A stretch of 59,463 bases of DNA, filler included. It is 6 parts of 6 records of this genome, joined end to end, with 100 filler letters (N's around TTAATTAATTAA, not from the genome) between each part and the next. Parts side by side here need not be neighbours in the genome. Positions count along the whole stretch, not along the records: positions 8,289 to 21,599 come from SRR31156797_20101; 5 more parts are not named here. One strand, 5' to 3'. The translations under genes and the position numbers were made by a program. This document shows, in pieces, positions 8,189 through 52,118 of this stretch; the stretch's first letter is position 1; each line of letters opens with the position of its first letter. The notes under the pieces are model-generated. The model did no database searches. It saw only the letters and a program-made list of their open reading frames with translations, and was not told the origin of the DNA.

Positions 8189-8288
8189 NNNNNNNNNNNN
8201 NNNNNNNNNNNNNNNNNNNNNNNNNNNNNNNNTTAATTAATTAANNNNNNNNNNNNNNNNNNNNNNNNNNNNNNNNNNNNNNNNNNNN
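8189..8288. other. Artificial contig linker
   Basis: 100 nt: N-run + TTAATTAATTAA (stops in all six frames) + N-run; composition changes abruptly across it. Confidence 0.98.
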
Positions 8289-10748
8289 AATATGAAGTTC
8301 CCAGGATATATGCTTATTGTTTGGGATTTTGTTATCTATGGAAAAAAGCAGCGTATTCCTGTAGGTCCAGGAAGGGGTTCGGCAGCGGGAAGTTTAGTCG
8401 CGTATTGTCTTTTTATTACCGATATTGATCCTATGCCATATGGATTACTTTTTGAGAGGTTCTTAAATCCTGAGAGGGTATCGATGCCAGATATCGATAT
8501 GGACTTTTGTCAAAGTAGACGACAAGAGGTAATCGACTATGTTGTTGAAAAGTATGGACGAGCCAATGTGGCACAGATTATCACCTTTGGGAAACTTCTA
8601 GCAAAAGGGGTGATCCGTGATGTTGCTAGGGTACTTGATATGCCGTATGCCGAAGCAGATGCTATGGCTAAACTTATCCCTGATGAACTGGGAATCAATC
8701 TAAAAGACTCATGGGAGAAAGAGCCTAAAATAGAAGAGCTTTGCAATCGTGATAAAAAAGCAGCAAGGGTTTGGCAATATGCTTTAGCCCTTGAAGGGTT
8801 GAATAGAAATGCTGGTACTCACGCTGCTGGAGTTGTTATCTCCAATGAAGCTTTATGGAAAAAAACACCACTTTTTAAGCCCTCAGGACTAGATACTTTA
8901 GCGACACAATATAATGGAAAATATGTTGAAGATGTGGATCTGATTAAGTTTGACTTCCTTGGGTTGAAAACCCTTACAGTAATTGAAGGTGCAAATCAAC
9001 TTGTTGAAAAACGTCATGGAAAACGGATTGACTTTATCAAACAAGATGTAAATGATAAAAAAGTGTATGATCTAATCCAAACAGGTCATACGATTGGATT
9101 ATTTCAGATAGAATCTCAAGGGATGCAAGATTTGGCAAAAAGATTAAAGCCTTCAGGATTTGAAGACGTAATTGCGATGCTCGCACTTTATAGACCAGGT
9201 CCAATGGAGTCTGGGATGCTTGATGACTTTATCGATAGAAAGCATGGACGAGCTGAGATCAATTACTTTTTTGATGAGTTTGATGAACCTTTAAAGCCTA
9301 TTTTAGAAGCAACTTACGGGGTTATTGTATATCAAGAGCAGGTTATGCAGATCGTACAGACTATTGGTGGTTTTTCACTTGGTGGCGCGGACTTAGTTCG
9401 TCGTGCTATGGGGAAAAAGATCAAAGAGGAGATGGATAAACTAAAAGTTGAGTTTGCTGATGGTGGTGTAGAAAAAGGTTTTGATAGAGGGCATTGTGAG
9501 ATGCTATTCGATCTAATTGTAAAGTTTGCTGGATATGGATTTAATAAATCTCACTCAGCAGCCTATGCACTGGTGACTTTTTATACTTCTTATCTAAAAG
9601 CATACTACCCAACAGAGTTTATGGCATCACTTTTAACAAGTGAAAAAGATAATACTGATAAAGTTGTTAAGTATGTTGATGAGGTTAAAAGGTTAGGATT
9701 TGAGTTAGTTCCTCCTGATATTAATAGATCAGATCTTGTTTTTAGTGCTGATAAGATTGATGGTCAAGAGGTTGTTATGTTTGGTATGGGTGCTCTAAAA
9801 GGTGCTGGTGATGTGGCAATTAAATCGATCCTTAAAGCACGAGAAGAGGGTGATTTTAAAGATTTAAGTGATTTTGTAAGTCGAATCGATAGTTCAAAAG
9901 TAAACAAAAGGGTTTTAGAAACGTTAACTAAGTCTGGAGCATTTGATAGTTTTGGATATTCACGTCGGGCTTTACTAGAACAGATTGAGATTATCGTAGA
10001 AGCTGCAGGAAAAGCAGCTCAGGCTAAAAAGATGATGGTAGGATCACTTTTTGGAGATGATGAAGAGTTAGTGACAATTTCAGTAGAGATAGAAGATAGA
10101 CCTGAGTATGAAGATAAAGAGATCTTAGAGTTTGAAAAACAAAGTTTAGGGTTTTATGTATCTGGTCATCCACTTGATAAATATAGAGAGAGTATCAATG
10201 AGATCAAACATACACTAAGTTCTGAAATTGAGACTCTTGATGATGGGGCTGAAGCGATTATAGTTGGACAGATCGAAGAGGTCAATGAGCGAATCTCTAA
10301 AAAAGGGAATAAATTTGCCATAGCAAAGATCATGGATTTACATGGAAGTTTAGAGTTGATGCTTTTTGAAGATAGGATCAAAGAGCTTGAAGAAGATTTT
10401 GATACCTCTAAACCAATTGCTTTTAAAGTAAGAGCAAAAGTAAATGATTTTGGGACACAACTGAGTCTTATGAAATTAGAAACTTTAAAAGAAGCAAAAA
10501 GTGAAAAGCTAAAAAAAGGGAAAAAAGTGGAGAAAAAACTTGATCCACTTCATATAGCCATTGAGTTTGCTAATGATGATAGGATTATTTACGAGTTGTT
10601 TGATGTGATCTCTAAAAATCAAGGGAAGCGTGAAATTAGTATCACCATTAAATCAAAGCTTGGGGATATAAAAATAGATAGTAGTTATTATGTGAATAAT
10701 ACTGTTGAGGGATTATTGCAAAATATGGATGGAGTTTATGTGGCTTAA
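8289..10748 (+). CDS. dnaE: DNA polymerase III alpha subunit (5' partial)
   Basis: GPGRGSAAGS, FERFLNPERVSMPDIDMDF, KFDFLGL and YGFNKSHSAAY motifs; C-terminal OB fold. Confidence 0.97.
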   Translation, partial: NMKFPGYMLIVWDFVIYGKKQRIPVGPGRGSAAGSLVAYCLFITDIDPMPYGLLFERFLNPERVSMPDIDMDFCQSRRQEVIDYVVEKYGRANVAQIITFGKLLAKGVIRDVARVLDMPYAEADAMAKLIPDELGINLKDSWEKEPKIEELCNRDKKAARVWQYALALEGLNRNAGTHAAGVVISNEALWKKTPLFKPSGLDTLATQYNGKYVEDVDLIKFDFLGLKTLTVIEGANQLVEKRHGKRIDFIKQDVNDKKVYDLIQTGHTIGLFQIESQGMQDLAKRLKPSGFEDVIAMLALYRPGPMESGMLDDFIDRKHGRAEINYFFDEFDEPLKPILEATYGVIVYQEQVMQIVQTIGGFSLGGADLVRRAMGKKIKEEMDKLKVEFADGGVEKGFDRGHCEMLFDLIVKFAGYGFNKSHSAAYALVTFYTSYLKAYYPTEFMASLLTSEKDNTDKVVKYVDEVKRLGFELVPPDINRSDLVFSADKIDGQEVVMFGMGALKGAGDVAIKSILKAREEGDFKDLSDFVSRIDSSKVNKRVLETLTKSGAFDSFGYSRRALLEQIEIIVEAAGKAAQAKKMMVGSLFGDDEELVTISVEIEDRPEYEDKEILEFEKQSLGFYVSGHPLDKYRESINEIKHTLSSEIETLDDGAEAIIVGQIEEVNERISKKGNKFAIAKIMDLHGSLELMLFEDRIKELEEDFDTSKPIAFKVRAKVNDFGTQLSLMKLETLKEAKSEKLKKGKKVEKKLDPLHIAIEFANDDRIIYELFDVISKNQGKREISITIKSKLGDIKIDSSYYVNNTVEGLLQNMDGVYVA

Positions 10749-10789
10749 GGCTTTTATAAAAGCTATTTAGAGAGCTTAAAACATCAATG

Positions 10790-10798
10790 TGATATAAT
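10790..10798 (+). promoter_or_regulatory. Extended -10 promoter for metY-metX-xseB
   Basis: TGaTATAAT ending 27 nt before the ATG, followed by AAGAGG RBS. Confidence 0.6.
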
Positions 10799-10825
10799 TG
10801 TAAATTATTATTTAAAAGAGGAAAT

Positions 10826-12097
10826 ATGCAAAAAGAAACAATAGCATTACATGCAGGATATGAAAAAGATACTCAATGGACAATGGCAGTTCCTATTTAT
10901 ATGAGTACTGCATATGATTTTGGAAGTGCAGATTTTGCAGCAAGTAGTTTTAATCTTGAACAGGGTACGGATCATGTGTATACACGTGTAGGAAATCCAA
11001 CAAATGCCACTTTGGAAAGAAGATTTGCAGCTGTAGAAGGTGGAAGTGCCGCATTGGCAGTGGCAAGTGGAATGAGTGCTATATTTTATGCTATTTTAAA
11101 TATTGTAGAAGCAGGGGACAATATAATAGTATCCAATAAACTTTACGGTGGAACTATTACTCTTTTTACTCAAACACTTAAAAGACTTGGTATTGAATCT
11201 AGATTTTTTGATATTCATAATCCTGATGAAATAGAACAGTTAATTGATGAAAAATCGAGATGTATTTTTTTTGAAACTATTTCAAATCCTAGTATCGATG
11301 TTCCAAATTTTGATGAGATTATAAAAATTGCAAACTCTCAGAATATTTTGACAATTGTCGATAATACTGTAGCGACTCCTTTTTTGTGTCAACCTCTTCT
11401 TCTAGGGATAGATATTGTAGTTCATAGTACTAGTAAATATACTACGGGACAAGGATTATCAATAGGTGGATTGATTGTTGAAAGAGAAAATCTTGTAGAA
11501 AAAATAAAAGGAAATAGTAGATACAAATATTTTAATGAACCAGAACCAAGTTATCATGGTTTGATATTTGCAGATTGTCCAGCAAGTTTTATGCTCTTTA
11601 CTTTTAGAGCAAGAATGATACTTCAAAGAGATACAGGAGCAGTTGCAAGCCCATTTAATTCATGGTTGTTTATTCAAGGTTTAGAAACTTTATCATTAAG
11701 AATGAAGCAACATAGTACAACAGCTTTAAAAATTGCCCGATTCTTACAATCAATTCCTCAAGTCAAAAGTGTAAATTATCCATTATTAGAGAATAATAAA
11801 AATTTTATGAATGCTAATAAATATTTACAAAATGGAGCAAGTGGATTAGTTAGTTTTGAAGTTGAAAATTATGAAATGGCAAAAACTATTTTAGATAAAG
11901 TAGAGATTTTTTCTATTGTGGCAAATATTGGAGATAGTAAATCAATAATTAATCATTCTGCATCAACAACTCATCAACAGTTAACAAAAGAAGAGCTAAA
12001 AAATGCGGGAATAGGGGAAGGTCTTATTAGATTAAGTATCGGTTTAGAAAATAGCGATGATCTTATTGATGATCTTAAAAAGGCGTTGGAAGTATAA
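10826..12097 (+). CDS. metY: O-acetylhomoserine aminocarboxypropyltransferase (sulfhydrylase), Cys/Met PLP family
   Basis: YTRVGNPT, DNTVATP, HSTSKY (PLP lysine), NIGDSKS, STTHQQL; adjacent to metX. Confidence 0.88.
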   Translation: MQKETIALHAGYEKDTQWTMAVPIYMSTAYDFGSADFAASSFNLEQGTDHVYTRVGNPTNATLERRFAAVEGGSAALAVASGMSAIFYAILNIVEAGDNIIVSNKLYGGTITLFTQTLKRLGIESRFFDIHNPDEIEQLIDEKSRCIFFETISNPSIDVPNFDEIIKIANSQNILTIVDNTVATPFLCQPLLLGIDIVVHSTSKYTTGQGLSIGGLIVERENLVEKIKGNSRYKYFNEPEPSYHGLIFADCPASFMLFTFRARMILQRDTGAVASPFNSWLFIQGLETLSLRMKQHSTTALKIARFLQSIPQVKSVNYPLLENNKNFMNANKYLQNGASGLVSFEVENYEMAKTILDKVEIFSIVANIGDSKSIINHSASTTHQQLTKEELKNAGIGEGLIRLSIGLENSDDLIDDLKKALEV

Positions 12098-13207
12098 TTG
12101 AAAATATTCACAGATACTGTAAAATTTGATAAACCTTTATATCTTGAAAGTGGTAGGGTACTAGAACCATATGAGATAAAGTATGAAACATATGGTGAGA
12201 TGAACGAGGATAAGTCAAATATCATCGTGATCACCCATGCTTTAACAGGATCTCATCATGCTGCGGGATATTATGAGGGTGATAGAAAACCAGGATATTG
12301 GAATGGCTTTATCGGTGATGGAAAAGCGATCGATACCCAGAAATATTTTGTAATAGCAACCAATAATATTGGAAGTTGTTTTGGAAGTACTGGTCCTATG
12401 AGTCCTATGAAAAATGCAGAACCATACCGTTTTAAATTTCCAGTTCTTACTATTAGTGATATTGTAAAAGCACAGGTGACTCTTTTTAAACATCTAGGAA
12501 TAGAGAAAGTAAAAGCAGTGATTGGTGGAAGTATGGGAGGGATGCAAGCACTTTGTTATGCTATAGAGTATCCTGAATTTGCAGAGATTATTATCCCTAT
12601 GGCAACTACAGCCTATACACGACCATGGGCAATGGCATTTAATAAAATAGCAGTAGAAGCTATTAAAAATGATCCAGAATTTAAAGATGGATATTATGAC
12701 CCAAAGGATATCAAAGAAAAAGGACTCAATGGTCTTGCGATTGGACGAATGGCAGGGCATATAAGTTATCTCTCCCGTGATTCTATGATGAAAAAATTTG
12801 GGCGACACTATCTTGAACAAGATGGTTTGTATGAGCTTTTTGGAAGATTTCAAGTGGAGAGTTATTTAGAATATAATGGGTATAACTTTCCACACTATTT
12901 TGATCCATTGAGTTATCTTTATATTATAAAGACTATCAATATTTTTAATGCAGCACGTGGAAGTGATAAATTAGAAGATGTATTTGCAAAAGTAAAAGCA
13001 AAACTGCATCTGCTTTCATTTAGTGGAGATGTACTTTTTTATCCTGAAGAGATGGAAGAGATATATGAGATTATGCATAAAATCGGAAGTGGTCATCTTT
13101 GTACGTATGAAGAGATTAAAAGTGATTATGGGCATGATGCCTTTTTAGTAGAGATTGATAAATTTGCAGATAAAGTAGTTGCAATGTTGGAGGGAACATA
13201 TGAGTGA
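12098..13207 (+). CDS. metX: Homoserine O-acetyltransferase (alpha/beta hydrolase fold)
   Basis: HALTG, GGSMGGMQA and GHDAFL motifs; TTG start abuts the metY stop. Confidence 0.93.
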   Translation: MKIFTDTVKFDKPLYLESGRVLEPYEIKYETYGEMNEDKSNIIVITHALTGSHHAAGYYEGDRKPGYWNGFIGDGKAIDTQKYFVIATNNIGSCFGSTGPMSPMKNAEPYRFKFPVLTISDIVKAQVTLFKHLGIEKVKAVIGGSMGGMQALCYAIEYPEFAEIIIPMATTAYTRPWAMAFNKIAVEAIKNDPEFKDGYYDPKDIKEKGLNGLAIGRMAGHISYLSRDSMMKKFGRHYLEQDGLYELFGRFQVESYLEYNGYNFPHYFDPLSYLYIIKTINIFNAARGSDKLEDVFAKVKAKLHLLSFSGDVLFYPEEMEEIYEIMHKIGSGHLCTYEEIKSDYGHDAFLVEIDKFADKVVAMLEGTYE

Positions 13208-13406
13208 AGAGATAAATGAACACAAAGAGTCATTCGAAGTAAAATTGGATGAAGCAGGGAAGCTTTTAGAAAAGTTGATTGATCCAAATATCACTTTGAG
13301 TGATAGTGTAAAGGTTTATAAAGAGGGGATGGGAAAATTAGAATCTGCTCAAAAACTTTTAGATGAAGCAAAATTAGAGTTTCAAGAGCTAACAGCACAA
13401 AAGTAA
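13200..13406 (+). CDS. xseB: Exodeoxyribonuclease VII small subunit
   Basis: SFEVKLDEA...TLSDSVKVYKEG...AQKLLDEA pattern; ATG 13200 overlaps the end of metX. Confidence 0.85.
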   Translation: MSEEINEHKESFEVKLDEAGKLLEKLIDPNITLSDSVKVYKEGMGKLESAQKLLDEAKLEFQELTAQK

Positions 13407-13419
13407 AAAAGGAGTAGAG

Positions 13420-14151
13420 ATGCAAGGGAGAACAAGAAGTTTTTTTGAAGATGTGGTTGTTCTTTTAGTCATCGTACTTGTAATAGGAGCAGGATATTAT
13501 TTCTTTTTTTCAAATAATGAAGAGGAGATAAAACCTCCTGTAATAGAGCAAAAGGTAGAAATAACAGAAGAAAAAATAGATTCTATAGAAGAACAATCTT
13601 TAAATCAAGAAGTTCAAGAAGTTGAAGAGTCTACACAGACTAAAATAGTTGAACAAAACTCTCAAAAAACAGATGAATCTTTGAAAGAAGAGCTACAAAA
13701 AGAATCGAAGCAAATTCAAGATAGTCAAGATACTAAAGAAGATATAAAAACGCCTAAGATTCCACAAAAACAGATTCAAGAAGAGGTATTGAAGAAAAAT
13801 GATGAGCCAAAGGCTAAAAAAGTGGATCCAAAAAGAATTGCACATCTTGTAAAAAATGTTGATCTTAAAGCCTTACAACAATTTAAAAATGATGTAAAGC
13901 AAGCGATGAAAGACAAGATAGTTTTAAATAAAGAAAAAGACAAAAAAGTGCAAAGTTTCAGTATACGTGTAACTGTACTTAAAAATGGAGAATACGAACA
14001 GTTAATTCATACAGGTGGAGATAAAGAAACATATGAAAACAATAAGGAGAACTTACTTCAGGTATTCCCTTTAAATATTGAGGATAATATAAAACAAGAT
14101 TTCCCTAGATATTTAAGATATACCTTTAAGTTTAACAATAATGACAATTAA
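13420..14151 (+). CDS. Single-pass membrane protein with E/Q/K-rich linker and possible TonB/TolA-like C-terminal domain
   Basis: N-terminal TM helix, long charged spacer, C-terminal SIRVTVLKNG...TGGD...FPL...YTFKF; AAGGAG RBS. The ORF is solid, the domain call is tentative. Confidence 0.6.
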   Translation: MQGRTRSFFEDVVVLLVIVLVIGAGYYFFFSNNEEEIKPPVIEQKVEITEEKIDSIEEQSLNQEVQEVEESTQTKIVEQNSQKTDESLKEELQKESKQIQDSQDTKEDIKTPKIPQKQIQEEVLKKNDEPKAKKVDPKRIAHLVKNVDLKALQQFKNDVKQAMKDKIVLNKEKDKKVQSFSIRVTVLKNGEYEQLIHTGGDKETYENNKENLLQVFPLNIEDNIKQDFPRYLRYTFKFNNNDN

Positions 14152-14239
14152 GAATTATACAATTCTTAATTTTAGCTTTATAAAGATTTAAGTAAAGATA
14201 TGTGATACTTTTGCAATACTTAAGGAAGATAGTATCCAC

Positions 14240-15805
14240 ATGCAAAATAATTTATACGAACATATCATTTACGATTCTGGATTTGTTACAAAAACCAATT
14301 TACAGGGTGAAATAACTTTTATTAATGACAACTACTGTAAAATCAGCGGCTATGAATGTTCTGAGATCTTAGGACAAACTCATAAGATCTTTCATCATGA
14401 AAATAGAGATCATAGTGTAGATAAAGAGTTATGGGAAAGTATAAGATCTGGGAAAGTTTATAAAACCATATTTACAAACTCTACAAAAGATGGCAGACTT
14501 TTTTATATGGATACATCAATCTATCCAATTACAAATAATGATGGAAAAATTGAAGAGTTTGTTTCTTTTGGGACAAATCTTACGCACTACATAGATATTA
14601 TCACATATGACCGTTTAACAGGTCTTAAAAATAGAGATACTTTAAAAAATGATATTGTCCAAGGAAAAAACTATATGTGTATTGTTGCTAATATAGATAA
14701 TTTTTCTGATATTACAGAATTTTATGGGGGATCAGTTGGAGATAGGGTGATTCAAGAAACTGCAAGGCGATTAAAACATGTTTTTAAACAAAGTATGGTG
14801 TATCGTTTACAAGGGGATGAGTTTGCTATATTTAGGGCATTAGATGATACATATGATGCAACACTTTTAGAAAATGAAGCAAAATATAAGATACGATCAA
14901 TTTTTGAAAATACTTTTTTTAAAGATGATCTTGATATTTTACTCACCGCAACTTCTGGAATAAGTATAGGAAATGATAATTATTTGCGTAATGCAAATTT
15001 AGCTTTTAAAGATGCAAAAAATAAAAACCTTAGTTACTCTATTTATAATGATGACCTATTAGAACTTTTTGCAAATTTTACTATTAATAAAGAGGTAGCA
15101 TCAGATATAAAAAAAGCGATTAAAGAGGATCAGATTATCCCTTATTATCAACCGATTATTGATAATAAAACGGGGAAAATAGTAAAATATGAAGCTTTAG
15201 CTAGACTTATTAAAGAGGATGAGGTGGTAAGTCCAGGAGCCTTTATCGATGTGTCTAAAAAAATTAAATATTATCACAAGATCACCAGAGCTATTTTAAA
15301 AAAGAGTTTTGAACATTTTGGAGTGAATCGTGATATTGGAGTGAGTATAAATATTACAATTGAAGATATTGCAAATGTACGAATCTTTAATTTGATTATA
15401 GATCTTTTGAATAAAAATGAATATAATCAAAACATCACTTTTGAGATCGTTGAGAGCGAAAGGATAGAAGATGATCAACTTTTTAACCGATTTATCAACA
15501 CTATTAAGCAATATGGAGCTAAAATCTCAATAGATGATTTTGGTACAGGATATTCTAATTTTGTATATTTAGCAAAACTTGAACCAGATTATCTTAAAAT
15601 CGATGGAAGTTTAATAAAAAATATTCATAATACTAAAGAGTTTGATGTAGTCAAGACTATTATAGAGTTTACTAAAATGTATGAGATTAAAACAGTTGCT
15701 GAGTTTGTGGAAGATGAAGATCTTTATATACTAGTAAAAGAGTTGGGGATCGATTATTCACAGGGATATTTTTTTGGAAAGCCTTTGTCTATAGATGAGA
15801 TTTAA
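14240..15805 (+). CDS. PAS-GGDEF-EAL protein, probably a c-di-GMP phosphodiesterase
   Basis: PAS N-terminus; degenerate QGDEF; intact YEALARL, DDFGTGYS, KIDGS, AEFVE, QGY. Confidence 0.9.
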   Translation: MQNNLYEHIIYDSGFVTKTNLQGEITFINDNYCKISGYECSEILGQTHKIFHHENRDHSVDKELWESIRSGKVYKTIFTNSTKDGRLFYMDTSIYPITNNDGKIEEFVSFGTNLTHYIDIITYDRLTGLKNRDTLKNDIVQGKNYMCIVANIDNFSDITEFYGGSVGDRVIQETARRLKHVFKQSMVYRLQGDEFAIFRALDDTYDATLLENEAKYKIRSIFENTFFKDDLDILLTATSGISIGNDNYLRNANLAFKDAKNKNLSYSIYNDDLLELFANFTINKEVASDIKKAIKEDQIIPYYQPIIDNKTGKIVKYEALARLIKEDEVVSPGAFIDVSKKIKYYHKITRAILKKSFEHFGVNRDIGVSINITIEDIANVRIFNLIIDLLNKNEYNQNITFEIVESERIEDDQLFNRFINTIKQYGAKISIDDFGTGYSNFVYLAKLEPDYLKIDGSLIKNIHNTKEFDVVKTIIEFTKMYEIKTVAEFVEDEDLYILVKELGIDYSQGYFFGKPLSIDEI

Positions 15806-15821
15806 AAAGAGGTAATTTGAT

Positions 15822-16874
15822 ATGTTAGGGTATTTTAAAAAAGATAAAAACTCTAGTTCTGCCAATGAAGATTTAATCTATGAATATGTTTTAGAAGAGA
15901 TGGCACATGGATCTCCTAATAAAGGGATACTTACAAAAGCTGTTTTAGAATCAGGGGGTGATGATGAAAAGGCAAAATCCTTATATCTAAAATATCGTGT
16001 TGAAGCTATTGAAAACAAGATAAAATCACTAGAGATAGATGTACGAAAATACTCAAAAGAAGAGCTATACACTTATATAGAAAATGATTTTAAAACCTAT
16101 AAAAAAAATAGTTTTTTTAAAATTCTATTCTATTTGATCATTATTTTAATTATTATTGGAGTTTTAGCAATAGCATATACTTTTATTCCAAAACAGAATT
16201 TCAATAGCCAAAGTATTGTAAAATCTGTACAAAACAAGATCACCCCTTTTGTTAAAAGCGGTACCATTCATGATAGTTATGGAAATATTTATAAAGAGGT
16301 GGTTTCTCCTTATACAAAAAAAGTATGGTTAGATAGAAACTTAGGAGCTACGAGAGTATGTGAAAGCTTTGATGATGATAAATGTTATGGAAGTTATTTC
16401 CAGTGGGGAAGAGGTGCTGATGGGCATGAGAAACATACTGTTGAGATCACTACAGACCTAGCAAAGCAGAGTGATCCTGGGCATAGCGATTTTATTGTAG
16501 GATATGCTGAAAATAGATATGACTGGATCACAGTGCAAGATAATACTTTATGGAAAGGATTATATGCGACAAATAATCCTTGTCCAAATGGATTTAGAAT
16601 CCCATCAACGGGAGAGTTTAAAAAAGAGCTGATTGATAATGGTGGAAACAATTTACACAAAGGGTATATGTCATTTTTAAAGCTTCCTACTTCTGGGTAT
16701 AGAAACTATAGCGGAGTGATAGATTATCAAGGTTTTGAGGGGAGATATTGGACAAGTTCAGTTAAAGAGCAGTTTGCATTATCTTTTAATACAGTAAGTA
16801 ATAGTGGCAAACCATATATGTTCTTTTTTGAAAGGGCCAATGGATACTCAGTGAGATGTATCAAAGATCAATAA
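15822..16874 (+). CDS. Membrane-anchored protein with FISUMP/Fib_succ_major-like C-terminal domain
   Basis: Cytoplasmic N-domain, one TM helix, then WLDRNLGA, YFQWGR, NPCPNGFRIPS, YWTSS, GYSVRCIKD. Confidence 0.75.
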   Translation: MLGYFKKDKNSSSANEDLIYEYVLEEMAHGSPNKGILTKAVLESGGDDEKAKSLYLKYRVEAIENKIKSLEIDVRKYSKEELYTYIENDFKTYKKNSFFKILFYLIIILIIIGVLAIAYTFIPKQNFNSQSIVKSVQNKITPFVKSGTIHDSYGNIYKEVVSPYTKKVWLDRNLGATRVCESFDDDKCYGSYFQWGRGADGHEKHTVEITTDLAKQSDPGHSDFIVGYAENRYDWITVQDNTLWKGLYATNNPCPNGFRIPSTGEFKKELIDNGGNNLHKGYMSFLKLPTSGYRNYSGVIDYQGFEGRYWTSSVKEQFALSFNTVSNSGKPYMFFFERANGYSVRCIKDQ

Positions 16875-16877
16875 TAA

Positions 16878-18038
16878 TCAATGGGAATATATCTCAATTT
16901 TATTTCGTCCATTTGCTTTAGCAGAATAAAGAGCTGTATCTGCTAATTTAAAGGCATCTTTAAAACTTCTTGATTCATTTGGATGTAGATTGATTCCTAT
17001 AGAGATAGTTACTTTAAGTTTTTCACCTTTTGGTGTGAGAAACTCTTTTTCTTGAATATTTTTAAAAATCCGTTCAACTATTTTGAGGGAATATTCTCTA
17101 CTATGTTTTTGTTTTTTGACTAGAATAACAAACTCTTCCCCACCATATCGTATTAAAATATCTTCATGGGATCTCATTGATTGAAGCATGGTTTTTGCCA
17201 CTTCTTGTAAAATAATATCTCCCACATCATGACCATATTGATCATTGATCTTTTTAAAATGATCAATATCTACAGCACTTAAAATATATTCTTGGAGATT
17301 GATCGTATCTTCGATACTTTGTAAATAGTTTCTATTATAAGTATTGGTAAGTTTATCAGTATACGCTGTTTTTTTCACTCTAAAATATTTGAAGGTTTGG
17401 ATTAATAAAATAGTAGTAAAAATAAGAACAATAAAAATAATAGAGATAAGAATGTTTTTTACAAAAGTGATGATCTTATTGATATCTTCTTGTTGATCAA
17501 TAGAAAAATCTATAGCTAGTATCATCTTTACTTCATTATTTCTGATCAAAGGAACTAAATACGTGATAGATAATTGGTGAAGTAGAGGCTGTTTGATAAA
17601 AACAGGTTTTTTTGTTTCAAAGATCTGATGCCATTTTGAGCTTTGAATATCAAGTTTTTGATTTATAAATGCTTTTTCATCATTTTTTGCTCCATCAGCT
17701 AAAAATCGATAAGTTCCTTTTGTATCTTTATATAAAAGATATGCATATTTGATATTTTTTGTAACAAGAATGGAAAGTTTTGTATCAATCTTTCGCTGGA
17801 TTTGGGTAGATTCAAGAATCGATTGAATACAGTTTTTGGAATTTGAAAGATTATTTTGAATAGATCTTGCAGTGTTTTTTGTAATTGCTAAAATATCTTT
17901 TGTAGCTATCTCTATCATATTCTCTTCAAATTGAGTTTCTAGTTTATTAATCCCATAAAGTAGGATTAATAGAGCAAAAGAGATAATAATGGAGAGAACT
18001 ATAAGGGAAAAACGATTATTAAGGATATTTTTTTTCAT
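16878..18038 (-). CDS. Membrane-bound diguanylate cyclase with periplasmic sensor domain
   Basis: Two TM helices flanking a periplasmic domain; TDKLT, DIDHFKKINDQYGHDVGD, RYGGEEF, ADTALYSAKANGRN. Confidence 0.92.
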   Translation of the reverse strand: MKKNILNNRFSLIVLSIIISFALLILLYGINKLETQFEENMIEIATKDILAITKNTARSIQNNLSNSKNCIQSILESTQIQRKIDTKLSILVTKNIKYAYLLYKDTKGTYRFLADGAKNDEKAFINQKLDIQSSKWHQIFETKKPVFIKQPLLHQLSITYLVPLIRNNEVKMILAIDFSIDQQEDINKIITFVKNILISIIFIVLIFTTILLIQTFKYFRVKKTAYTDKLTNTYNRNYLQSIEDTINLQEYILSAVDIDHFKKINDQYGHDVGDIILQEVAKTMLQSMRSHEDILIRYGGEEFVILVKKQKHSREYSLKIVERIFKNIQEKEFLTPKGEKLKVTISIGINLHPNESRSFKDAFKLADTALYSAKANGRNKIEIYSH

Positions 18039-18496
18039 TATAAGTCTTCTATAAACTGCTCATACTCTTTTGATAGTTGAATATTATTTTTTCTCAATCT
18101 ATTTTTAATAAAAACAATATTTGGCCGACTTTTACTCCAGAAAAATGCACCTAAATAGTTTGGATCAGACATTAATTTTCTATAGTTATTTGTAAGAAGA
18201 TATTGATCGTCTCTTTTTTTAGAACAAGATTCTTTTTCTCCATATTTTACAAAGATGAAGTTTGCTTCTTCACATGACTCTACAAGGGTAGTATTTGTAG
18301 AATAGATTTTTTTATCTAAACTTTTTTGATTTGGGATAAAAAGTTTAATTTGTCTATTTGCGAGGATCTCTTTAGCAATCTTTGTAACGATCTTTGCTTC
18401 AAGTTCAGTCTCTTTTGAATACTCATCGATTAAATAAGTATAACTTTTTGCAAAGAGTAATGATGGTAATAAAAAAAGGAAAAAAAGCTTTTTCAA
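18038..18496 (-). CDS. Exported small protein, tentatively a remote YfiR/DUF4154-like periplasmic regulator
   Basis: TTG at 18496 overlaps the receptor stop (TTGA) with AGGTGG upstream; signal peptide MKKLFFLFLLPSLLFA; two Cys; stop overlaps the cyclase start (TAATG). Confidence 0.65.
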   Translation of the reverse strand: MKKLFFLFLLPSLLFAKSYTYLIDEYSKETELEAKIVTKIAKEILANRQIKLFIPNQKSLDKKIYSTNTTLVESCEEANFIFVKYGEKESCSKKRDDQYLLTNNYRKLMSDPNYLGAFFWSKSRPNIVFIKNRLRKNNIQLSKEYEQFIEDL

Positions 18497-20412
18497 AACA
18501 ACCACCTAACTTCAAAAGTAGCACTTCTATCATAATCAGGGAAGGCATTATTTATCGTATTATTAAAATTACTTTTATCAATAGCTAGAGACTTTGTTGG
18601 TTTATCTAAGAGGTTTGTTCCTTTTAAACTAAAAGTAATGTTTTTTGTATAGTGATAAATAAATCCAAGATTTAAATTAAAACTATTTGGAACATCAAGG
18701 TCTAAATAAGAATATCCTCCTTTATAGATCAATGAGGTAAAATAGTCAAACTTTTCATATTTCCCCATATATTTAAAATAGCCACCTTTAGAGGTGTTAT
18801 TTGCTGTATGGTTGAGATGGGTAACATAATAGTTAAGTTTTACAATATCACGATTGGGTAAAGTATATTCATAATTTGCTATAACTCCATCTATTTTTAC
18901 AGCACTATCTACATTGATAAATCCTATTGGAGAGTAATAGATAAAGTCTTTAATTTGTACATTATAATAATCAAGATTGATCTTTGAATTCTCAAAAGTA
19001 TAGACACTATCTAAAATAAAATAATTATAATGTTGTGTTTTTAGGGTATCTGTTGTTTGTGCTTTAAAATCCATATTATAAAAAGAAGGAGTCATATGGC
19101 TTTTGGTATAAAATGCTTTAAAACCTAGGTTTTGTGTTGGAAGATAGATAGCTCCAACTTTATACAAATATTCTGTCTCATTTTTTAAAAGCTCACTTGA
19201 TCTATCATAATGATCGATTTTAACATTTGAGATAAGATGAAGGTTATCTTGAATTTTATAATCATCTTGTAATAAAATTGAATAGACATTTTCATTTTTA
19301 AAGTCATGAAAATGACCTTGGTCTGTAGTTGTATTTAAAAAGTTCGTACTGTATCTATTTTTTACATCATAGTTTTTATTTTGAAAGTTTATTGCACCAA
19401 AAAGTGTATGTGAATCTATTTTATACTCTTTTGATAAATAGGCGTTTAGTTTCATAAAACGAAGATCTTGATAGTATTGTTTTGGTATGGTTGTTCCCAT
19501 GTTTGTAAGATCAAAAACAGGAACTATAAAAAGCCCTTGGTCATTATATTCTGAATACTCTAGATCATTTATATCAAATGAGATAGATGATTTTAAAGAT
19601 TTGTCTCTATCCCAATAGGTACTCATATTGATAAAAAGATCTTGTGCTAATAACTCTCCATCATTTGGAGTAAGATCAGATGAATATCCCATATATTTAT
19701 CTTTTTTGATATCTGTATATCCAAGATCAATATTATTATTTTCATTATTCATATTTAAAAAGAGATATTGTTGATTGGTATTATTATTGAGCTTGATATT
19801 ATTATAATAGTTGTGTTTAAAACTATTTTGGTTTGATCCATGAACTAGATAAGACCAGCCATTTGATAAAATTGATGAATGGGTAAGCTCTTGTGAATTT
19901 GAATGGTTATTCGAACCACTGAGTGCTAGCTCTGTTCCATTCTCTTTTTTTGCATTTTTTGTATAAACACGTATAAATTGTAGTCCAGTTTCATTTCCTA
20001 AAGTAAGTGAAGCTTCTCCATAATATATCTCAATATGATCAATTAAACTAATTGGCATATCTATCCAACCAAGAGCAGGGGACTGGATATAGATGGAACT
20101 TACTTCATGGTCATTGATAAAGAGTCTAAAAAAACCATTTGCTTCTGTTTTACTTCCTGAAAATGAGATGGTATTTATCCCCATTCTATTGGTATTTATA
20201 TTATTGATAGGAATTTCTCTTAGGAGATCTGAGAGGGTTTGAAACTGCATATGTTGTAGTTCTTCTTGAGTATAGACTATAACATATCCCATTTTTTCAT
20301 CAAGGGTTTTTAAAGAGTTTTTTGAAGAGCTTTCATACTCTTTTAAAAGGGATTCTAAACTTGATGCAAAAAGAAAAGTACTAGTAAATATTATGAAAAA
20401 AATTAATCGCAT
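18493..20412 (-). CDS. TonB-dependent receptor-like outer-membrane beta-barrel
   Basis: Signal peptide; plug motifs (IVYTQEEL, TLSDLL, IDHIEIYYG); aromatic beta-strand pattern; ends GTNLLDK...FEVRWLF with terminal Phe. Confidence 0.88.
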   Translation of the reverse strand: MRLIFFIIFTSTFLFASSLESLLKEYESSSKNSLKTLDEKMGYVIVYTQEELQHMQFQTLSDLLREIPINNINTNRMGINTISFSGSKTEANGFFRLFINDHEVSSIYIQSPALGWIDMPISLIDHIEIYYGEASLTLGNETGLQFIRVYTKNAKKENGTELALSGSNNHSNSQELTHSSILSNGWSYLVHGSNQNSFKHNYYNNIKLNNNTNQQYLFLNMNNENNNIDLGYTDIKKDKYMGYSSDLTPNDGELLAQDLFINMSTYWDRDKSLKSSISFDINDLEYSEYNDQGLFIVPVFDLTNMGTTIPKQYYQDLRFMKLNAYLSKEYKIDSHTLFGAINFQNKNYDVKNRYSTNFLNTTTDQGHFHDFKNENVYSILLQDDYKIQDNLHLISNVKIDHYDRSSELLKNETEYLYKVGAIYLPTQNLGFKAFYTKSHMTPSFYNMDFKAQTTDTLKTQHYNYFILDSVYTFENSKINLDYYNVQIKDFIYYSPIGFINVDSAVKIDGVIANYEYTLPNRDIVKLNYYVTHLNHTANNTSKGGYFKYMGKYEKFDYFTSLIYKGGYSYLDLDVPNSFNLNLGFIYHYTKNITFSLKGTNLLDKPTKSLAIDKSNFNNTINNAFPDYDRSATFEVRWLF

Positions 20413-20499
20413 TAAATAACCCAAAATTTGAATTTTATATTATATATTTTTACCCATTAAAATAAAGAGTGAAGAAGTGATTTTTCTTTATTTTAAATA

Positions 20500-20508
20500 T
20501 GATACAAT
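20500..20508 (+). promoter_or_regulatory. Extended -10 promoter implying a leaderless mRNA for 20515..20916
   Basis: TGaTACAAT ends 6 nt before the ATG; no SD sequence between them. Confidence 0.55.
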
Positions 20509-20514
20509 TCAAAT

Positions 20515-20916
20515 ATGGAAAGTAATGAATTAATAACCTTAGAACAGGCAAAAGAGTTTGAACAAAATATTGTACAAAAACATTTTGATGAAACAGACAA
20601 AAAGCTCCTTAAATTAGTTTTATCCCAAATAAAAGGGGATAATGATATCTATCTATTTGATTTTTCACAGCTTGAAGATCTTGGGTTTGATGTGGTCAAT
20701 AATGAAAAAGAGCTTTTTGATAGTTTAAAAAAGATCGCTAATTTTTATGTGAATATTCAAAATGGAAGTGGAGACTATTATCAAATGGGTTTGATCCATA
20801 ATAAGTTTACGATAGATCAAGAAACAAAAATACTCTCTATAAAAATTCATAAAGAGCTTGTTCCTTTTTTAGGAAATTTAAAACACCAGTACGATCATAA
20901 ACAACTTAACTTATAG
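20515..20916 (+). CDS. Stand-alone Rep_3/RepB-initiator-like N-terminal winged-helix (WH1) protein
   Basis: DKKLLKLVLSQIK...ELFDSLKKIA...LSIKIHKELVPFLGNLK resembles WH1 of Rep_3 initiators by eye; the ORF stops where WH2 would begin. Confidence 0.6.
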   Translation: MESNELITLEQAKEFEQNIVQKHFDETDKKLLKLVLSQIKGDNDIYLFDFSQLEDLGFDVVNNEKELFDSLKKIANFYVNIQNGSGDYYQMGLIHNKFTIDQETKILSIKIHKELVPFLGNLKHQYDHKQLNL

Positions 20917-21599
20917 GATTAAGAGGGATTATTATGGTGAATTTTGCTCCTCTATGCTCTTTTTCATTAAAAGTATACGATACATTTTCTACTTTGATAG
21001 AACCTTTCATACTATTTGTAATAAGTGTATATGCCATATGTAAGCCTAATCCAGTTCCTTGAGATTGGTGTTTTGTTGTAAAATATGGCTCATAAATCTT
21101 TTCTATAATATCTTCGGGTATACCACCTGCATTATCTTTAAATACAATGATCACATGCTGATCTTTTACCTCTTGTGAAATAAAAATAAAACGATTATCT
21201 TCTGCATTATTTGCAAGGAGTGCATCTTTTGCATTATTAAAAATGTTGATAAAACATTGGATCAATTCATGGGGATACCCTTTTACTGTTATATCTTCAT
21301 GAAGATTTAAAATAACATGTAAATGGTATTGTTTGATAGTCCCATCAACTAGTTTTATAAAACTATCTGTGTCATTTTTAAGATCAAATCTTATAGGTTT
21401 TGAATCCCCTTTAATATATTTTTTAAACTCTTCTATCGTATGGGAGAGAAATTGTGCATTTTCATTAATGATTTCGCAAGAGTGATTGATGTCATTTTGT
21501 TCTAACAATCCATAATCATTTTTTGCTTTAAGACCTGTAGCAGCAGTAGAAATAACTGAAAGAGGTTGTCTCCATTGATGAGCAATGTTTCCTATCATT
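20906..21599 (-). CDS. Sensor histidine kinase, C-terminal part (5' end lost at contig edge)
   Basis: MIGNIAHQWRQPL H-box, INIFNNAKDA, DNAGGI, YFTTKHQSQGTGLGL. Confidence 0.92.
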
Positions 21600-21699
21600 N
21601 NNNNNNNNNNNNNNNNNNNNNNNNNNNNNNNNNNNNNNNNNNNTTAATTAATTAANNNNNNNNNNNNNNNNNNNNNNNNNNNNNNNNNNNNNNNNNNNN
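21600..21699. other. Artificial contig linker
   Basis: N-run + TTAATTAATTAA + N-run. Confidence 0.98.
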
Positions 21700-27337: not shown

Positions 27338-27437
27338 NNNNNNNNNNNNNNNNNNNNNNNNNNNNNNNNNNNNNNNNNNNNTTAATTAATTAANNNNNNN
27401 NNNNNNNNNNNNNNNNNNNNNNNNNNNNNNNNNNNNN
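27338..27437. other. Artificial contig linker
   Basis: N-run + TTAATTAATTAA + N-run. Confidence 0.98.
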
Positions 27438-43397: not shown

Positions 43398-43497
43398 NNN
43401 NNNNNNNNNNNNNNNNNNNNNNNNNNNNNNNNNNNNNNNNNTTAATTAATTAANNNNNNNNNNNNNNNNNNNNNNNNNNNNNNNNNNNNNNNNNNNN
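43398..43497. other. Artificial contig linker
   Basis: N-run + TTAATTAATTAA + N-run. Confidence 0.98.
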
Positions 43498-52018: not shown

Positions 52019-52118
52019 NNNNNNNNNNNNNNNNNNNNNNNNNNNNNNNNNNNNNNNNNNNNTTAATTAATTAANNNNNNNNNNNNNNNNNNNNNNNNNN
52101 NNNNNNNNNNNNNNNNNN
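52019..52118. other. Artificial contig linker
   Basis: N-run + TTAATTAATTAA + N-run. Confidence 0.98.

Follow-up and report, generated by a model that had tools for sequence, protein, structure and literature searches.

A conserved cassette of an outer-membrane receptor, a small exported protein and a c-di-GMP enzyme that probably carries a signal across the envelope of free-living Campylobacterota

To our knowledge, the inputs to most enzymes of cyclic di-GMP (c-di-GMP) metabolism are unknown, and very few pathways are known that reach them from outside the outer membrane. Among described systems, YfiBNR (TpbB) of Pseudomonas aeruginosa and Escherichia coli has a three-compartment layout feeding a membrane GGDEF cyclase, and HmsCDE of Yersinia is a related three-compartment system. 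In excerpts of published work, a periplasmic protein encoded just upstream is described as controlling the membrane c-di-GMP enzyme both in YfiR/YfiN (PMC4887326) and in NspS/MbaA (PMC5646818, PMC8967002), and a pterin-binding periplasmic protein as controlling a c-di-GMP enzyme in Agrobacterium (PMC11194511). Here we analyse an operon found in a 59,463-nt stretch of DNA (the window), which encodes a plugged barrel of the TonB-dependent-receptor (TBDR) family, a small exported protein and an inner-membrane diguanylate cyclase. Genome comparison suggests that the cassette probably carries a signal across the cell envelope.

The operon shares the three-compartment layout of YfiBNR and, as in the E. 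coli record, places the gene for a small exported single-domain alpha/beta protein directly upstream of the cyclase gene and overlapping it. The outer-membrane partner, on the other hand, is here a plugged barrel of ~640 amino acids (aa) that is encoded first, whereas YfiB is an OmpA-like lipoprotein encoded last. NspS-MbaA of Vibrio cholerae also pairs a binding-protein-like periplasmic sensor with a membrane GGDEF-EAL enzyme encoded next to it, and the sensor controls the periplasmic domain of the enzyme, as described in the excerpts cited above, but the system has no outer-membrane component, and the enzyme in the window has no EAL domain. Finally, as in the FecA-FecR-FecI and FpvA transducers, a TBDR-family barrel is proposed to pass information, besides or instead of a nutrient, to a partner exposed to the periplasm. 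Unlike those transducers, the receptor here has no STN signalling domain by Pfam (only ~25 residues precede the plug), no anti-sigma or extracytoplasmic-function (ECF) sigma factor genes lie nearby, and the output would be c-di-GMP rather than transcription.

Three overlapping genes kept together

The window joins six unrelated blocks (GC 0.27-0.57), and therefore only the low-GC, 13-kb block at 8289-21599, which holds the operon, is valid context; genes beyond it are not neighbours. Three open reading frames (ORFs), all on the minus strand, occupy 16878-20424. The receptor gene (18493-20412) encodes 639 aa from an ATG at 20412; the ORF would span 18493-20424 and 643 aa if the first TTG, at 20424, were used, and the start sites of orthologues agree with the ATG, which an earlier, sequence-only reading of this DNA had also chosen. 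It is followed by the gene for the 152-aa exported protein (18038-18496) and by that for the 386-aa cyclase (16878-18038). Both overlaps described in that reading can be read in the sequence: the receptor stop and the start of the middle gene share TTGA at 18493-18496, while the stop (TAA) of the middle gene and the start (ATG) of the cyclase gene share TAATG at 18036-18040. The receptor gene ends in GTT AGG TGG TTG TTT TGA, and the in-frame TTG at 18496-18494, 8 nt past AGGTGG, opens the 152-aa ORF; an alternative start, the GTG at 18505, would extend it to 155 aa. ORFs and Pfam matches agree, too, with the proposed distribution of a barrel, a two-cysteine exported protein and a GGEEF cyclase with two transmembrane helices, one product per envelope compartment.

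To place this arrangement in context, a scan of genome contigs with one genome per species returned 57 related loci (L001-L057), whose taxa were taken from record titles or tree origins. All are Campylobacterota except two metagenome-assembled genome (MAG) records with generic labels, 'Proteobacteria bacterium' (L047) and 'bacterium' (L027). In 57 of 57 loci, the gene that immediately follows the small gene encodes an enzyme with a GGDEF domain at about residues 226-381, and these enzymes align with the cyclase of the window over their whole length, periplasmic part included, with a common N-terminal module of ~220 aa. In 55 of the loci, the small gene is immediately preceded by that of a receptor orthologue (34-54% identity); the contig of L005 begins 59 nt before the small gene and is uninformative, which leaves 55 of 56 informative loci. 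Conservation of the triad, on which the sequence-only reading had staked itself beforehand, is thus borne out by receptor, small gene and enzyme gene standing adjacent in 55 of 57 loci.

The junctions are conserved as tightly as the order. In 50 of the 51 loci that hold both genes, the receptor stop and the start of the small gene overlap by 1 nt through an ATG or GTG (TAATG, TGATG, TAGTG), and the remaining locus, L004, has TTGA like the window. Between small gene and enzyme gene, the 54 loci with an intact small ORF show a 1-nt TAATG-type overlap (22), a longer overlap (29) or a gap of 1-5 nt (3), so that the gap is at most 5 nt in every case. When the ORFs of the loci were clustered, the three cassette families were found in 57, 54 and 52 loci and the next family in 10. 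The sixteen recurrent neighbour families are of the housekeeping kind (ArgRS, Gmk, HemD, AHAS, LpxD, a Fur-family regulator and others), and none of them is TonB, ExbBD or an ABC transporter. The 13-kb block itself holds no TonB, ABC, ExbBD or FecIR genes, which extends the previous remark that no uptake genes are adjacent.

Taken globally, the three genes form a conserved, translationally coupled, self-contained cassette of free-living Campylobacterota. Its adjacency is not chance, since the enzyme gene is present in 57 of 57 loci and the receptor in 55, while no other family occurs in more than 10. The operon could nevertheless join products that do not work together, with an ordinary nutrient receptor, a periplasmic protein unrelated to it and a cyclase simply being co-transcribed. 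A scan of 16600-20800 for promoter- and terminator-like sites, which gave 21 sites against 27.9 expected from shuffled sequence, is uninformative and leaves room for such independence. However, Arcobacteraceae, Sulfurospirillaceae and Sulfurimonadaceae all retain the adjacency, order and overlaps although the surrounding genes differ, and in the loci examined the small-protein family and the sensor domain of the enzyme are seen only together, so we regard independent function as very improbable.

Some loci depart from the intact form: L010, L023 and L054 have a broken small ORF, and L048 and L054 a split receptor, through either decay or MAG assembly errors. Nine Sulfurospirillum-type loci have, immediately ahead of the receptor gene and in the same orientation, a gene for a Fur-family regulator (PF01475, 1e-20; 3534-3947 in L057, and eight more). 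A gene for a di-haem cytochrome c peroxidase is close by, and this setting may point to control by metals or peroxide in the lineage.

Enzyme, receptor and small protein

The third gene encodes a diguanylate cyclase by prediction. Its catalytic domain (residues 225-380; 16899-17366) matches GGDEF models (PF00990, 5e-39; TIGR00254, 7.9e-44) and carries the GG(D/E)EF motif as RYGGEEF, which is invariant in 46 of 46 cyclase sequences. At the position of the inhibitory site, residues 289-293 (17160-17174) read R-S-H-E-D, that is R-x-x-x-D, with R289 and D293 invariant in 46 of 46. The canonical site has the form RxxD, and therefore product inhibition may be absent or altered in this enzyme.

Two long hydrophobic helices flank a periplasmic region of ~160 aa, the putative sensor domain (about residues 30-193; 17460-17951). 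In the AF2 model of the cyclase (pLDDT 86.5), the first transmembrane helix continues as a long helix followed by a sheet of five strands (residues 96-180), while the second runs as one continuous helix into the GGDEF domain, with no HAMP in between. A Foldseek search with the full model returned diguanylate cyclases as best matches; it is dominated by GGDEF and silent on the periplasmic domain. Weak matches to dCache_1 were obtained for 4 of 46 orthologues (best E 0.0029) and weak matches to DUF7720 for 4 of 46, and the domain has the invariant polar residues Y100, D105, R111, D115, Q127, K128 and D130. The modelled strands, the weak dCache_1 matches and these residues fit a Cache/PDC-like sensor. 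Pfam found neither CHASE8 nor HAMP in the cyclase, and the DgcN/YfiN model NF007423 matched only the GGDEF domain, at residues 222-374, and reached 105 bits where its cut-off is 325.

Most of the orthologous enzymes have a further domain. An EAL domain, whose consensus keeps the EAL and DDFG(S/T)GYS motifs, is present in 36 of the 57 and absent in 21, two of which are incomplete (L035 is cut by the contig end and L054 is truncated). On a tree of 395 shared columns, from which these two were left out, EAL presence changes at least 5 times by parsimony, with 2 changes forced by well-supported branches, and the cyclase of the window clusters with those of two loci that have GGDEF only (SH-aLRT 100). 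A search for the sensor domain among proteins of 212-676 aa yielded 87, of which 18 carry GGDEF only, 65 carry GGDEF and EAL, and 4 are fragments without a Pfam domain; no kinase and no methyl-accepting chemotaxis protein (MCP) was among them. The suggestion that the third gene might swap among GGDEF, kinase and MCP outputs was therefore not upheld, given GGDEF or GGDEF-EAL in 57 of 57 loci and in 83 of the 87 proteins, the other 4 being the fragments. The sole predicted enzymatic output of the cassette is c-di-GMP turnover.

As a side observation, a cytoplasmic PAS-GGDEF-EAL protein (EAL 4e-60) is encoded on the plus strand at 14240-15805, ~1 kb from the cyclase gene and opposite to it. The cassette enzyme of the window having no EAL domain, this neighbour is a candidate source of phosphodiesterase.

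The receptor belongs to the TBDR family by its plug and 22-strand barrel, for which both Pfam models exceed their gathering cut-offs: Plug (PF07715; 1.6e-7, 32.2 bits against 23.9, residues 46-144) and TonB_dep_Rec_b-barrel (PF00593; 1.3e-11, 45.5 bits against 27, residues 205-605). Its signal peptide ends in ...LFA and its C-terminus in ...VRWLF. No NCBIfam receptor subfamily was reached, with TOL_0244 scoring 29 bits against a cut-off of 645, and the sole PDB sequence match was the colicin I receptor CirA (7e-4), over the plug and early barrel. This alignment starts at query residue 41, residue 20 of the CirA chain, and the N-terminal stretch of the receptor thus corresponds to the TonB-box region of CirA.

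That stretch is conserved. In an alignment of 49 full-length receptors, the mature N-terminus (20287-20364; S21-G46 of the 643-aa ORF) has the consensus LDxLLxEY......SLxTVDEKxGH, directly before the first plug strand, and the hydrophobic residues of LDxLLxEY have a helix-like spacing. Set against the usual consensus, LDxLLxEY does not read like a classical TonB box, in line with the initial impression that no obvious box is present. It may represent a TonB box that has diverged, or else a peptide for docking.

A Sec-type signal peptide can be read from the sequence of the middle protein, which matches no Pfam or NCBIfam family. The protein has 238 homologues at E<=1e-3, and the wider family comprises 273 clusters at 50% identity (E<=1e-3), with Persephonella as one distant member. 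Among the 120 homologues listed, every organism name shown is of Campylobacterota (Halarcobacter, Arcobacter, Sulfurimonas, Sulfurospirillum and others), none carries a precomputed Pfam domain, and those that are named are 'hypothetical' except for one JGI label, 'DNA-binding Lrp family transcriptional regulator'. A tblastn search of the protein against 72,556 plasmid records gave no match. The only long match among the best 150 representatives, P0161 (299 aa), was considered as a fusion of small protein and enzyme and rejected: it is a frameshifted read-through on a metagenomic fragment, with ~30 out-of-frame residues at the join.

The protein has exactly two cysteines, C75 and C91, neither of which varies among the 44 aligned homologues. 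The signature motif GAFFWSKSRPNI (residues 116-127; 18116-18151), modelled as a beta-hairpin, is likewise invariant in 44 of 44 close homologues. A broader alignment of 105 sequences retains R124 in all 105, K122 in 102, G116 in 101 and W120 in 99, which gives the family hallmark G-A-F-[FY]-W-x-K-[GS]-R-P-N. With its Lys, Arg, Trp and aromatic residues, the GAFFWSKSRPNI hairpin is a candidate binding surface or pocket.

We then asked whether this protein is a relative of YfiR, as proposed from motifs picked out by eye. Those motifs proved to be the conserved ones of the small-protein family itself, and all profile comparisons failed. DUF4154 (PF13689) did not match the small protein at E<=10, and at E<=0.01 it matched 0 of the 149 proteins that represent the wider family; by contrast, PF13689 was found in 120 of 120 E. 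coli YfiR homologues among the matches listed. The YfiR alignments were built from E. coli K-12 yfiR and its homologues and widened with Acinetobacter, Burkholderia and Pantoea genes, and cover Gamma- and Betaproteobacteria only. Against 18 enteric YfiR sequences, hhalign gave probabilities of 1.4% (family alignment A3) and 0.2% (A1), and against 12 YfiR sequences including those of Acinetobacter, Burkholderia and Pantoea, 0.5% (A3). Unfiltered HMM searches of databases of 750 and 899 sequences, in both directions, left YfiR and the family among decoys (best YfiR E 0.85), and the family profile met PDB sequences at chance level only (best E 0.41, no YfiR). The cysteines do not correspond either: the YfiR alignment has four invariant ones, which excerpts of PMC4655355 describe in P. 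aeruginosa as two conserved pairs, Cys71-Cys110 and Cys145-Cys152, whereas the small protein has only two and matches neither pair.

The predicted fold gives a different picture. The AF2 model (pLDDT 88.1, pTM 0.77) shows a single alpha/beta domain of ~130 residues, and Foldseek placed eight YfiR entries among its PDB matches (TM-score 0.49-0.53, E 0.02-0.11, probability 0.90-0.99). Best matched was the single-domain substrate-binding protein (SBP) of Rhodothermus marinus, RmSBP (6k1y/5z6v; E 2e-3 to 6e-3, with 2.4e-3 for the best, TM-score 0.45), followed by the ligand-binding entries 3lkv/3lft (TM-score 0.55). RmSBP is similar in size, but has no detectable sequence relation to the small protein, with 11% identity in the structural alignment. 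According to excerpts of PMC10805632, RmSBP genes lie near a signalling gene, which encodes an MCP and not a c-di-GMP enzyme, and the word 'TonB' occurs 0 times in that paper. A language-model search returned 14 unlabelled Campylobacterota clusters and then Acidobacteriota clusters of ~137 aa, one of which (score 0.86) carries DUF4154 on 19% of its members; we treat this as a lead only.

The model thus makes it plausible that the small protein has the fold of a type-I periplasmic-binding-protein half-domain of the YfiR type, the fold class described for YfiR in excerpts of PMC4655355, and is a YfiR relative by fold. The proposed likeness is plausible for the fold, whose model lies in the YfiR neighbourhood in Foldseek, and fails for the sequence, where Pfam, NCBIfam, hhalign and HMM comparisons all fail. 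The small protein appears to represent an undescribed family and is not demonstrably a member of DUF4154.

This outcome bears on the main rival explanation, a sequestration mechanism of the YfiBNR type, in which, as the sequence-only reading suggested, the barrel may take the place of YfiB as sensor. There the small protein would be a constitutive periplasmic repressor of the cyclase; upon ligand binding or envelope stress, the barrel would expose its N-terminal peptide, capture the repressor and free the cyclase, with no need for a ligand to enter. The shared layout and the plausible likeness in fold are compatible with it. Yet the small protein shows no sequence or profile similarity to YfiR/DUF4154 and lacks its cysteine pairs, the cyclase has a Cache-like domain in place of CHASE8 and HAMP and resembles DgcN/YfiN in its GGDEF domain only, the barrel is unrelated to YfiB, and the bifunctional GGDEF-EAL enzymes of most orthologues suit a switch better than simple de-repression. 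We therefore consider such sequestration rather unlikely.

A proposed envelope-spanning module

We propose that the three genes constitute one envelope-spanning sensory module of free-living Campylobacterota. The barrel would admit one specific extracellular compound into the periplasm, or report its binding; the small protein would be a coupling factor that docks on the Cache-like periplasmic domain of the enzyme and tunes the activity of the enzyme in response to the barrel. In the variant that we favour, a ligand that has come in through the barrel would be sensed by the small protein, either by itself or jointly with the Cache-like domain, and the enzyme would then be switched by the small protein. 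The enzyme of the window being a GGEEF cyclase and most of its relatives GGDEF-EAL proteins, the output would be the cellular level of c-di-GMP. In this scheme, all contacts between the proteins, the ligand, a dependence on TonB and the direction of regulation are inferences.

The logic would resemble that of NspS/MbaA, with a gate of its own added in the outer membrane: the small protein would act on the enzyme through the Cache-like domain, and the input would come from the barrel. We assign this logic a probability of roughly 0.4. The presence of GGDEF-EAL enzymes in 36 of 57 loci, as in MbaA, was counted in its favour, and the confinement of the sensor domain to c-di-GMP enzymes was counted for a c-di-GMP module. 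A complex prediction for residues 20-152 of the small protein and 30-195 of the enzyme, run without alignments, scored 0.01 against a mark of 0.34 and speaks neither for nor against it.

Several observations weigh against this proposal. NspS is a full two-domain polyamine-binding protein, whereas the small protein, of an unrelated family, consists of one domain of ~130 residues; with one domain only, a protein cannot clamp around its ligand in the manner of two-domain binding proteins. No Foldseek match of the small protein reached E<=1e-3. The Cache-like domain could sense the ligand alone, and no sensing would then be left for the small protein to do. The aligned receptors show no classical TonB box, and the 13-kb block has no TonB system. 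Finally, L027 holds the small and enzyme genes without an adjoining receptor gene; a divergent lipoprotein gene is found there instead (L027:1-1400).

L027 also helps to weigh the possibility that the small protein works for the receptor rather than for the cyclase, for instance as a periplasmic shuttle or acceptor for an imported substrate or as an assembly or gating factor, with the Cache-like domain sensing the compound directly. The fold of the small protein is indeed that of substrate-binding proteins, every one of the 51 loci with both genes shows translational coupling of receptor and small gene, and Cache-type domains are themselves sensors of small molecules. In L027, however, it is the enzyme gene that accompanies the small gene, with no receptor gene beside them, which suggests that small protein and enzyme are the tighter pair. 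The small gene is, moreover, equally coupled to the enzyme gene, and the 57 loci show no conserved inner-membrane transporter nearby that could take up a shuttled substrate. A role in the service of the receptor consequently seems improbable to us, more so than sequestration.

A further reading concerns the route by which the barrel would act on its partner in the module. The N-terminal peptide of the barrel, in the place of the TonB box, might engage YfiR-fold proteins that gate a Cache-like GGDEF or GGDEF-EAL enzyme. We hold this tentatively, as somewhat unlikely and less probable than the general logic of gate and regulator. If true, it would add a second kind of trans-envelope signalling by TBDRs beside the FecA/anti-sigma route, and an independent evolutionary solution to the problem that YfiBNR solves.

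Setting of the operon and its meaning

Around the cassette, a membrane-anchored protein with a Fib_succ_major (Fibrobacter succinogenes major domain) match of 7.7e-8, just below gathering, is encoded at 15822-16874 on the plus strand. Its gene converges on that of the cyclase, with stops 3 nt apart and no terminator-like hairpin between them. On the other side, a 133-aa ORF at 20515-20916 (plus strand), with a match to Rep3_N (plasmid replication initiator WH1; 4e-7), diverges from the receptor gene. It is overlapped by the end of a histidine-kinase fragment (HisKA/HATPase_c) at 20906-21598 on the minus strand, which is cut by the end of the block. The concatenation points of the window lie at 8189-8288, 21600-21699, 27338-27437, 43398-43497 and 52019-52118; these N-runs are five pairs of 44 N with 12 bases between the members of each pair.

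In the open-access PMC/bioRxiv literature, we came across no account of this cassette and none that connects DUF4154 with TBDRs. Its parts are of known kinds, while their combination and the small-protein family appear to be new. Compact, strictly conserved and with a receptor-family barrel and an unannotated small protein as the only partners of the enzyme, the cassette offers a directly testable case. It also provides a natural comparison between cyclase-only and cyclase-phosphodiesterase outputs on one sensor. If the barrel does feed the enzyme, proteins of the TBDR family would gain a signalling output other than ECF sigma factors, and a family of at least 273 clusters at 50% identity would gain a role.

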